A stretch of 10,407 bases of DNA from IMG/VR virus record IMGVR_UViG_2563366840_000004. One strand, given 5' to 3'. Source of the stretch: a virus. Lineage: Duplodnaviria; Heunggongvirae; Uroviricota; Caudoviricetes. The notes beneath the pieces were generated by a model, which saw only the letters and a list, made by a program, of their open reading frames with translations, had not been told where the DNA came from and did not search any database. The position numbers and the translations under genes were made by a program. Positions 8,308 to 9,221 of this stretch are shown here, piece by piece (positions within the stretch are counted from its first letter, which is position 1; each line of letters opens with the position of its first letter).

Positions 8308-9143
8308 TGCAGCGTTCCTGGTTTAATAACCGGCTTACATCAGCTAAGCAAAAGTCATTACTTTATAAATCATTGGCTGATTTGGTTCAGTCAATGATGG
8401 ACACCTTTGTTGACCCATGGTTGGAGCGAATTACCAACCGGAAGTCTATTTTCTCCATGAGCAAGGAGGATCTGGAGACTAGGACAAATGAACTTGGCCA
8501 GTTTTTTACTATCAGGACGTCGAATTCATCTTCCGTTCCGATGTTGTTACAACAGCGGTTTAATGAGATCCATTTTAAGGGTACTGAACGCCCTATAAAC
8601 CAGACAATTTATCGCGAATTTAACGGTATATCGGTTTTATGGGATCCCATATATGCTCCGGTGGACTTTGAACGTCATCCCTATGGCACGGTCCTGATTC
8701 CAGAAAGCACACTGGAAACCACCGGCGGCACATTCGGCGAGATGTTTCTGACTTCCAGAGGAATGATCAGTATTCCCATAAACGACCTGGCCCGGACAAT
8801 GGGTATTACTGGAACGATAGATCAGTCCGCAATTACAGAAGAAATTCTCAGAAAGTTTAATCAGTTCGTAAAGCCTCTACTGCCACTGCATATAGTGTTT
8901 GATGGGCTTACGCTCTATTTGTCGGTTGTTGTAAATGAACAGGCCGACATGATTACTTTGAATGAGATTTCTGATACCGAAAAAGCATTCTGCTGGTTTG
9001 AAACTTCGGATACAACTTCGCTTACTGAAGTTACGTCGATTAACGCCCCGATCACTGCAACGCCGGGCGGCACTATTGTGAAAGCAACGCCTACGTTTGA
9101 TCGCACCCGCGCAGATGATTTGCTGTTGGATAGCGATGCGTGA
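8307..9143 (+). CDS. Baseplate / tail-fibre attachment protein (GpI-like position), about 278 aa
   Basis: ATG 8307 overlaps the previous stop (TGATG) with GAGGAGG upstream. The ORF track starts at GTG 8304, which leaves too short an SD spacer. Functional call is positional. Confidence 0.6.
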   Translation: MQRSWFNNRLTSAKQKSLLYKSLADLVQSMMDTFVDPWLERITNRKSIFSMSKEDLETRTNELGQFFTIRTSNSSSVPMLLQQRFNEIHFKGTERPINQTIYREFNGISVLWDPIYAPVDFERHPYGTVLIPESTLETTGGTFGEMFLTSRGMISIPINDLARTMGITGTIDQSAITEEILRKFNQFVKPLLPLHIVFDGLTLYLSVVVNEQADMITLNEISDTEKAFCWFETSDTTSLTEVTSINAPITATPGGTIVKATPTFDRTRADDLLLDSDA

Positions 9144-9146
9144 CAA

Positions 9147-9171
9147 TCACCCCGTCCGCAGGGCGGGGTGA
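9147..9171 (+). terminator. GC-rich stem-loop (11-bp stem, 3-nt loop) in the intergenic region; candidate intrinsic terminator/attenuator or RNA stability element
   Basis: TCACCCCGTCC-GCA-GGGCGGGGTGA, with one G.U pair in the RNA stem, followed on the + strand by a moderately U-rich tract (CAAGUUACUUAUCUUAC). Flanked by a GTGACAA direct repeat at 9140-9146 and 9168-9174. Confidence 0.45.
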
Positions 9172-9221
9172 CAAGTTACTTATCTTACAATGAGGCTTCA
9201 CAACATTGATTAGGGAAAATC

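Follow-up and report, generated by a model that had tools for sequence, protein, structure and literature searches.

The late promoter LPs and a putative boundary stem-loop between gene 16 and the tail-fibre gene R of a P1-like phage-plasmid

Late transcription in phage P1 requires the phage activator Lpa together with the host protein SspA (PMC8201110), and the Lpa binding site is a 9-bp element, the -22 box (PMC10695390). Nine late promoters annotated in P7 share the pattern (T)GAC-AAGTGACTT-N4-TANNNT. One of them, LPs (also designated Ps), lies between gene 16 and R in both P1 (NC_005856) and P7 (AF503408), ahead of the tail-fibre operon R-S-U. Its bases are labelled '-22 box of Ps' and '-10 box of Ps' in M81956, where a misc_feature at nt 559 reads 'transcription start from Ps phage-specific late promoter'. 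The same architecture, namely (T)GAC, a 9-bp box close to AAGTGACTT, a 4-nt spacer and TANNNT with no -35 element, is shared by LPsit, LPdar, LPpac, LPmat, LPpro, LPlyz and LP23. A stem-loop at the 16/R junction has likewise been on record since 1989, as the GenBank entry for the P1 tail-fibre operon (M25470) lists 'stem_loop 506..530 putative' and gives it no function; the P1 and P7 genome records annotate neither a terminator nor any stem-loop at this gap. A literature search returned no paper assigning or testing a function of the 16/R stem-loop, and one on P1 late-promoter names and RNA-seq returned no mapping of the junction. Published P1vir RNA-seq, given as per-gene values with the gap between gene 16 and R below their resolution, reports gene-level fold changes of 3.3 (10 min) and 11.0 (30 min) for gene 16 and of 3.8 (10 min) and 11.2 (30 min) for R. 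At that per-gene resolution both genes reach about 11 log units by 30 min, and R, S, U and gene 16 are all late genes.

The stretch of DNA analysed here, referred to as the window, comprises 10.4 kb (10,407 nucleotides) of the tail and baseplate region of a P1-like phage-plasmid. It shares about 97% identity with P1 and P7 and matches NC_005856 from 37110 to 46675 on the reverse strand. A copy of IS1 occupies 96-866, and the co-oriented open reading frames are, in order, pmgC, tub, pmgB, sit, pmgA, bplA, gene 16, R and the start of S. Gene 16 (8304-9143, + strand, 279 aa) encodes a baseplate or tail-tube protein, corresponds to P1 gene 16 (P1_gp034) and P7 gp16, and is the last gene of the upstream LPsit operon, with its TGA stop codon at 9141-9143. 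R (9222-9656, + strand, 144 aa), a gene of tail-fibre structure or assembly, begins with the ATG at 9222 and heads the tail-fibre operon; its product is 98.6-100% identical to gpR of P1-like phages. A likely Shine-Dalgarno sequence for R, AGGGA, can be read at 9212-9216 (+ strand), 5 nt upstream of the ATG. The 5' constant part of S (Sc), positioned from the P1 annotation at 9668-10407 (+ strand), has a translation beginning MNDVTVVTSV and runs past the end of the window. Gene 16 and R are thus separated by 78 nt (9144-9221). An earlier note, made from the sequence alone, had drawn attention to this gap as one of two sizeable intergenic regions, and its coordinates hold, as the sole other gap of comparable size among the co-oriented genes is at 3048-3128. 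As far as the R start codon, promoter and remaining gap alike are identical to P1 and P7 save for one base in P7; what differs is the context of the gene-16 stop codon, which is GCGTGACAA in the window and GCCTGATAA in P1 and P7.

Positions 9173-9191 on the + strand, AAGTTACTT-ATCT-TACAAT, match the annotated P1/P7 late promoter LPs base for base, and we regard the identification as practically certain. The 19-nt core, AAGTTACTTATCTTACAAT, is identical in the window, P1 and P7, and the promoter as annotated in M81956, NC_005856 and AF503408 does not differ from that of the window at any position. The -22 box occupies 9173-9181 (+ strand), is a 9-bp palindrome and agrees with the consensus AAGTGACTT at eight of nine positions. 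It is followed by the 4-nt spacer ATCT and then by the hexamer TACAAT (9186-9191, + strand), which both P1 and P7 annotate as minus_10_signal and which is 30 nt upstream of the ATG of R, so that LPs stands upstream of a late operon, R and then S. The downstream operon R-S-U and the placement between gene 16 and R are also those of P1 and P7. The motif AAGTTACTT-N(3-6)-TANNNT occurs once in the window, with 0.00 occurrences expected by chance; the next-best late-promoter match is LPsit itself at 913-931, with two mismatches, and there is no other good one. A promoter of the sigma-70 type was considered and rejected. The hexamer 17 nt upstream of the -10, GCGGGG, matches TTGACA at one of six positions, and because it occupies the -35 position a two-hexamer sigma-70 scan calls no promoter at LPs; without a -35 the site is not in the scan list.

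These results bear out the internal promoter that the earlier note had placed in the gap, including the position of TACAAT about 30 bp before the ATG at 9222. The note had also stated that P1-type late promoters lack a -35 and use a conserved upstream element; that element is AAGTTACTT at 9173-9181, which matches the annotated -22 box, and LPs fits the consensus drawn from the eight further late promoters that P7 has on annotation. The 'U-rich-ish tract' that had been read behind the hairpin (9172-9186, seven T in 15) is, on the other hand, the -22 box and spacer of LPs, so that the apparent terminator tail turns out to be an activator binding box. The promoter in the gap is therefore already known and is ordinary for the P1 phage family, and the sole internal regulatory gap of the window is now accounted for by a known element whose start has been mapped experimentally in P1.

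The transcription start is carried over from the identical P1 sequence. Nucleotide 559 of M81956 corresponds to 9200 (+ strand), an offset of +8641 confirmed by an alignment, referred to below as A2. Relative to this start the -10 hexamer spans -14 to -9, the -22 box -27 to -19 and the upstream hairpin -53 to -29, leaving a 5' UTR of 22 nt. Both the start site and the Lpa dependence of LPs in the element of the window would thus hold by transfer from P1; lpa lies outside the 10.4-kb window and is present in P1 and P7, the close relatives. By this account host RNA polymerase would use LPs only with the phage activator Lpa and host SspA, and transcription from it would begin at about 9200 and lead to the expression of R, S and U late in infection.

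Immediately upstream of the promoter is a GC-rich stem-loop (9147-9171, + strand), whose arms are TCACCCCGTCC (9147-9157) and GGGCGGGGTGA (9161-9171) and whose loop is GCA, as had been pointed out in the earlier note. It begins 3 nt past the gene-16 stop codon, ends 1 nt before the -22 box and comprises the same 25 nt as the stem-loop entered in M25470. The 11-bp stem consists of ten Watson-Crick pairs and one T.G position, 9155.9163, which pairs only as a U.G wobble in + strand RNA. Since this position is A.C on the - strand, the + strand RNA is the more stable by 3.5 kcal/mol (-20.4 versus -16.9 kcal/mol). A sliding 31-nt fold scan with ViennaRNA places the hairpin first in the whole window on both strands, at -21.0 against a mean of -4.1 (sd 2.8), making it the most stable local fold of the window. 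The surrounding 91 nt fold at -32 kcal/mol (z = -4.0), and none of 200 shuffles folds as well.

The GTGACAA direct repeat said to bracket the hairpin is also present, at 9140-9146 and 9168-9174 (both + strand). As an independent conserved motif, however, it was rejected. The 5' copy is the gene-16 stop codon plus CAA and varies among relatives, and the 3' copy consists of the stem end, a C and the two bases that open the -22 box, with a TGAC context that is common to other P7 late promoters. The full 7-nt repeat is found in 23 of 80 related loci, the 6-nt TGACAA in most others and TGATAA in P1 and P7. Two further candidates were rejected. A known RNA family is ruled out by an Rfam covariance-model search, which gave no match at 9140-9221 with E-values up to 10. 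Read-through of the UGA, or a SECIS-like signal, as might be suggested by a hairpin 3 nt past UGA-C, is ruled out since the 21-codon extension is not conserved; P1, P7 and several other loci have an in-frame TAA directly after the TGA (TGATAA).

Among P1-like loci from IMG/VR, all 80 of those examined have the hairpin. All three loop positions vary across them (GCA becoming GTA, ATA or GCC), and two internal stem substitutions retain pairing in + strand RNA, U.G becoming C-G in one locus (L021) and C-G becoming U.G in another (L027). Two variants break the base of the stem, at one or both of its two lowest pairs. Four positions of the 5' arm vary and none of the 3' arm does. A covariation count over these near-identical sequences gave no compensatory double changes, with shuffles equal to the observed value, and therefore says nothing either way. 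A scan of GTDB genomes with an alignment of R proteins added three near-identical loci only.

More distant relatives differ at this junction. In Cronobacter phage JK004, a Salmonella Newport plasmid and their relatives in IMG/VR, whose R proteins are about 73% identical to that of the window, the gene-16 stop codon adjoins the promoter directly, as TGAC-AAGCGACTT-CCCA-TAAAAT in JK004 and TGAC-AACGGACTT-TCCA-TAGAAT in the Newport plasmid, and no hairpin lies between stop codon and box. The same is true of a single locus, L157 (TAAC-AAGTCACCT-GAAT-TACCAT), and of a metagenomic group (L112-L147). The D6-like phages, whose R proteins are 43-45% identical to that of the window, do have a hairpin, TTCTTCCCCC-loop-GGGGGAAGAA, which is unrelated in sequence and is located directly past the gene-16 stop codon and before a late-promoter motif of their own. 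That motif, AAATCACAAACT, precedes seven late genes of D6 in 46 kb, where chance would give 0.08; as the pattern was derived from the same seven upstream regions, the count signifies that a shared 12-mer is not there by chance and is found nowhere else. Within the D6 group the stem is retained while the loop or apex is swapped (GCATTT, the inverse AAATGC, CGC, CAC, GGCGTG), with fold energies of -13.9 to -21.2 kcal/mol across all variants. As at P1-like LPs, the D6 hairpin runs into a tail poor in U, CAACGGAAAUCAC, with a single U. Because the JK004-like phages, L157 and the metagenomic group lack a hairpin, it is dispensable for the promoter and for the layout of the operon. That two diverged lineages keep a GC-rich hairpin with no U tract and three do without would argue for a real but dispensable role at the RNA level, and the same comparative pattern argues against a protein site of fixed spacing and against a requirement of the promoter for the hairpin.

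What such a role might be is suggested by the position of the hairpin with respect to the upstream message. It would form in RNA begun at LPsit (913-931) and extended through pmgC, tub, pmgB, sit, pmgA, bplA and gene 16, and it may mark the 3' boundary of this transcript, acting as a leaky terminator or pause site, as a barrier to 3'-to-5' exonucleases, or as both, such that the upstream message and the tail-fibre message would be held apart as separate units. Intercistronic, mRNA-stabilising stem-loops of the REP type, such as that of malE-malF, could block 3' exonucleases and so set different levels for different segments of a message. Like these, the 16/R hairpin is stable, lacks a U tract and lies between cistrons, although it is no REP sequence and is present in a single copy. 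We tentatively regard it as a putative leaky boundary or 3'-end-protecting stem-loop of the sit-16 message, a reading that we put somewhat short of an even chance; the explanation as a whole, with LPs as the promoter and the hairpin as a boundary, we consider moderately probable. Whether the hairpin limits read-through from the baseplate operon or stabilises mRNA bears on the engineering of P1 tail fibres and P1 phagemids, in which the R-S-U cassette is often moved together with its upstream context, and also on the means by which structural genes stay silent in the plasmid prophage of P1-family phages.

A stronger version of the boundary, in which the hairpin is an efficient Rho-independent terminator that ends the LPsit transcript fully and leaves R-S-U dependent on LPs alone, appears quite improbable. 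Efficient intrinsic termination by E. coli RNA polymerase needs a U tract. A GC-rich stem-loop of 11 bp located 3 nt past a stop codon and between two transcription units does resemble the Rho-independent terminators known from E. coli and the phages that infect it, the tail-fibre genes are handled as an operon of their own in the P1 literature and annotation, and the fold of the window variant can be extended by GUGAC/GUUAC pairs, after which comes UUAUCUU. The U tract of those terminators is nevertheless missing right after the main stem, where the sequence reads CAAGUUACUUAUCUU; with two U in the 8 nt that follow the stem (CAAGUUAC) the tail is not U-rich, which is the reason that a consensus terminator scan of the window does not list the 16/R hairpin. 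In P1 and P7 (CTGATAA), as in most relatives, the lower part of that extended stem is weaker, and the D6 hairpin, as noted, has one U in its tail. The clear terminators of P7 look different as well. When the P7 genome was scanned for GC-rich hairpins, the one at 16/R came out within the top four by strength but with no U tract. U tracts are plain at the hairpins behind the gene ends of ant, shtB and glt, and A-rich or mixed flanks accompany the hairpins next to c8 and between proB and lydD. The lack of a U tract thus implies that the 16/R hairpin is not an efficient intrinsic terminator. A terminator for the opposite direction, stopping leftward antisense transcription through S and R and so shielding the baseplate genes, is more doubtful still. 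The - strand tails, UUGUCACG in the window, UUAUCAGG in P1 and UUAUUAAA in D6, are indeed richer in U than the sense tails, but the - strand hairpin is the weaker one, with its A.C mismatch and, in L027, a second mismatch; a scan of the - strand from 9200 to 10407 finds no promoter-like site, and P1 and P7 annotate no antisense transcript. A similarly small chance is left for the palindrome acting as DNA, either as a site for a dimeric regulator or as an upstream part of the promoter, with the 3' arm spanning -39 to -29. It sits where a -35 element would be, and the arm nearer the promoter is the invariant one in P1-like variants. Against this, such a palindrome is missing from seven of the nine late promoters of P7, JK004-like LPs promoters work with coding sequence in its place, a DNA cruciform is mismatched at T.G, and the D6-like loops range from 3 to 6 nt, one of them inverted, which a protein site of fixed spacing would not tolerate.

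The main rival to the boundary reading is that the hairpin has no function, being a tolerated palindrome and a relic of the history of the junction. We hold this to be unlikely, though it has the largest share among the alternatives. As possibilities, the relic could have arisen as a 22-nt insertion with duplication of TGACAA, or as the decayed 3' end of a formerly longer gene 16. Consistent with an insertion, the hairpin-less relatives have a single TGAC, which is stop codon and promoter context at once, where P1-like elements have TGACAA-22 nt-TGACAA; the direct repeat is as well explained by slippage and deletion in the other lineages as by an insertion with duplication. Alignment A2 sets the hairpin, with partial similarity, against the last codons of the longer JK004 gene. 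The absence of compensatory covariation, within near-identical P1-like sequences, also agrees with a lack of function, as does L157, which does without the upstream hairpin and, as modelled below, without masking of the ribosome-binding site. Three observations speak for function: no other fold in 10.4 kb is as stable; all 80 P1-like loci retain the hairpin, although the direct repeats on either side of it should promote deletion; and the D6-like phages have an unrelated hairpin at the same junction, whose stem is conserved while its loop varies freely.

A hairpin immediately upstream distinguishes LPs, and to a lesser degree LPpac, from the other Lpa-dependent late promoters of P1 and P7, where it is absent. 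LPpac is the other late promoter of these phages with a co-oriented gene just upstream, and it is preceded by a small hairpin and then TTTT. A second kind of hairpin is found within several of the promoters. At LPsit, LPpac and LPdar an inverted repeat reaches from the promoter core to the first gene's ribosome-binding site; in the LPsit of the window CTCGTAGAATC (922-932) pairs with GATTCTACGAG (947-957). JK004-like phages have at LPs a 14-bp inverted repeat, CCATAAAATCAGAC / GTCTGATTTTATGG, of which the 5' arm holds the -10 hexamer and the 3' arm reaches the Shine-Dalgarno sequence. At P1-like LPs pairing of this kind is vestigial. We modelled read-through RNAs and promoter-initiated RNAs, with the start offset of +9 mapped in P1, and took as output the probability that the ribosome-binding site is unpaired. 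For the four variants of JK004-like LPs, the predicted probability is 0.01-0.12 in read-through RNA and 0.52-0.68 in promoter-initiated RNA; the corresponding values are 0.13-0.15 and 0.59 for LPsit of the window and 0.28 and 0.52 for LPpac of P7. For LPs of the window they are 0.61-0.67 and 0.59. Here a pairing remnant of 5+4 bp at 9184-9214 is predicted to give no masking, and the Shine-Dalgarno sequence of R is equally accessible in both RNAs.

From these models one might propose that P1-family phages insulate late operons from read-through by two interchangeable devices and that the P1 hairpin replaced an ancestral masking hairpin, a scheme that we consider improbable as a whole. The first device would be the anti-Shine-Dalgarno hairpin within the promoter, as at LPsit, LPpac and JK004-like LPs. 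Its 3' arm would cover the ribosome-binding site, so that read-through RNA would go untranslated, and because the -10 hexamer lies in the 5' arm, that arm would be absent from RNA begun at the late promoter. The second device would be the U-less GC-rich hairpin just upstream of the box at P1-like and D6-like LPs, which might stop or destabilise read-through RNA, possibly aided by a roadblock formed by the complex of Lpa and RNA polymerase on the adjacent promoter. At P1-like LPs the upstream hairpin might thus stand in for translational masking, with the 9184-9214 remnant being what is left of the latter. A clean trade-off between hairpin and masking across the lineages found, however, no support. 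L157 has neither device, and for D6 and the metagenomic group the models predict masking in read-through and promoter-initiated RNA alike, so the replacement of masking by a hairpin is not a general pattern. In its arrangement, the first device resembles that of the late genes of phage T4.

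The upstream tail operon, which runs from pmgC to gene 16, is headed by the late promoter LPsit (913-931), which reads AAATGACTA-CTCG-TAGAAT. Within 913-963 the promoter is enclosed by a perfect 11-bp inverted repeat, in which CTCGTAGAATC (922-932) pairs with GATTCTACGAG (947-957), such that the -10 hexamer lies within the 5' arm and the 3' arm overlaps GAGG, the Shine-Dalgarno sequence of pmgC, whose ATG is at 963. When RNA begun upstream of the promoter is folded in silico, the fold masks the pmgC ribosome-binding site, whose probability of being unpaired is 0.13-0.15; in RNA modelled from the LPsit start, placed at the offset mapped in P1 (+9), the site is open, with a probability of 0.59. 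If the folding model holds, this arrangement would resemble the unmasking seen in T4 late genes. Similar pairings occur at two other late promoters of P7, LPpac and LPdar, and at LPs, the late promoter preceding the tail-fibre gene R, of JK004-like phages, relatives that have no hairpin upstream of LPs.

The region just upstream of LPsit is adjoined by a complete copy of IS1 (96-866), 99.5% identical to other IS1 copies. The same place is occupied by simABC in P1 and by upf50.0/upf50.5 in P7. The tail operon could receive outward transcription from the IS1 copy. A preprint on the S' tail fibres of P1 attributes the control of R, S and U to the late promoter 'LPsit' (bioRxiv 10.1101/2022.07.24.501295). 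In the P1 and P7 records it is LPs that immediately precedes R, with LPsit some 8 kb further upstream.

Late promoters of the D6 type appear to carry a motif different from that of P1, AAAT(C/A)ACAN(A/T)CT; the regions concerned are 19180-45511 in phage D6 (L228) and 1396-1420 in locus L091. The pattern, which was derived from the same D6 upstream regions in which it was then counted, has seven matches in the 46 kb of D6, against 0.08 expected by chance, and each of the seven precedes a late gene (darB, orf16, prt, ddrB, lydA, R and pmgB). At R, lydA and ddrB the motif is preceded by GC-run hairpins. In two D6-like loci, L097 and L103, the sequences around a hairpin approximately 90 nt upstream of R are identical except that the hairpin loop is exactly inverted (GCATTT versus AAATGC). 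The centre of the palindrome has thus been flipped, which shows that there is no constraint on loop orientation.

A metagenomic group related to P1 and D6 (L124 and others among L112-L147), with contigs of ~90 kb and an R 52% identical to that of D6, carries, within the 50 nt that precede its R homologue, a hairpin that looks like a canonical terminator, GCCTCT-TAACTCTG-AGAGGC followed by TTTTTTT. This terminator-like hairpin stops immediately 5' of the start codon of R, and its 3' arm contains the Shine-Dalgarno sequence. The second strongest hairpin in the window, CCACAGAGGGTG-CGTA-TACCCGTCTGTGG (2910-2940, -18.3 kcal/mol), is located within the pmgB coding sequence, and its counterpart is conserved in P7 at 47447-47479.
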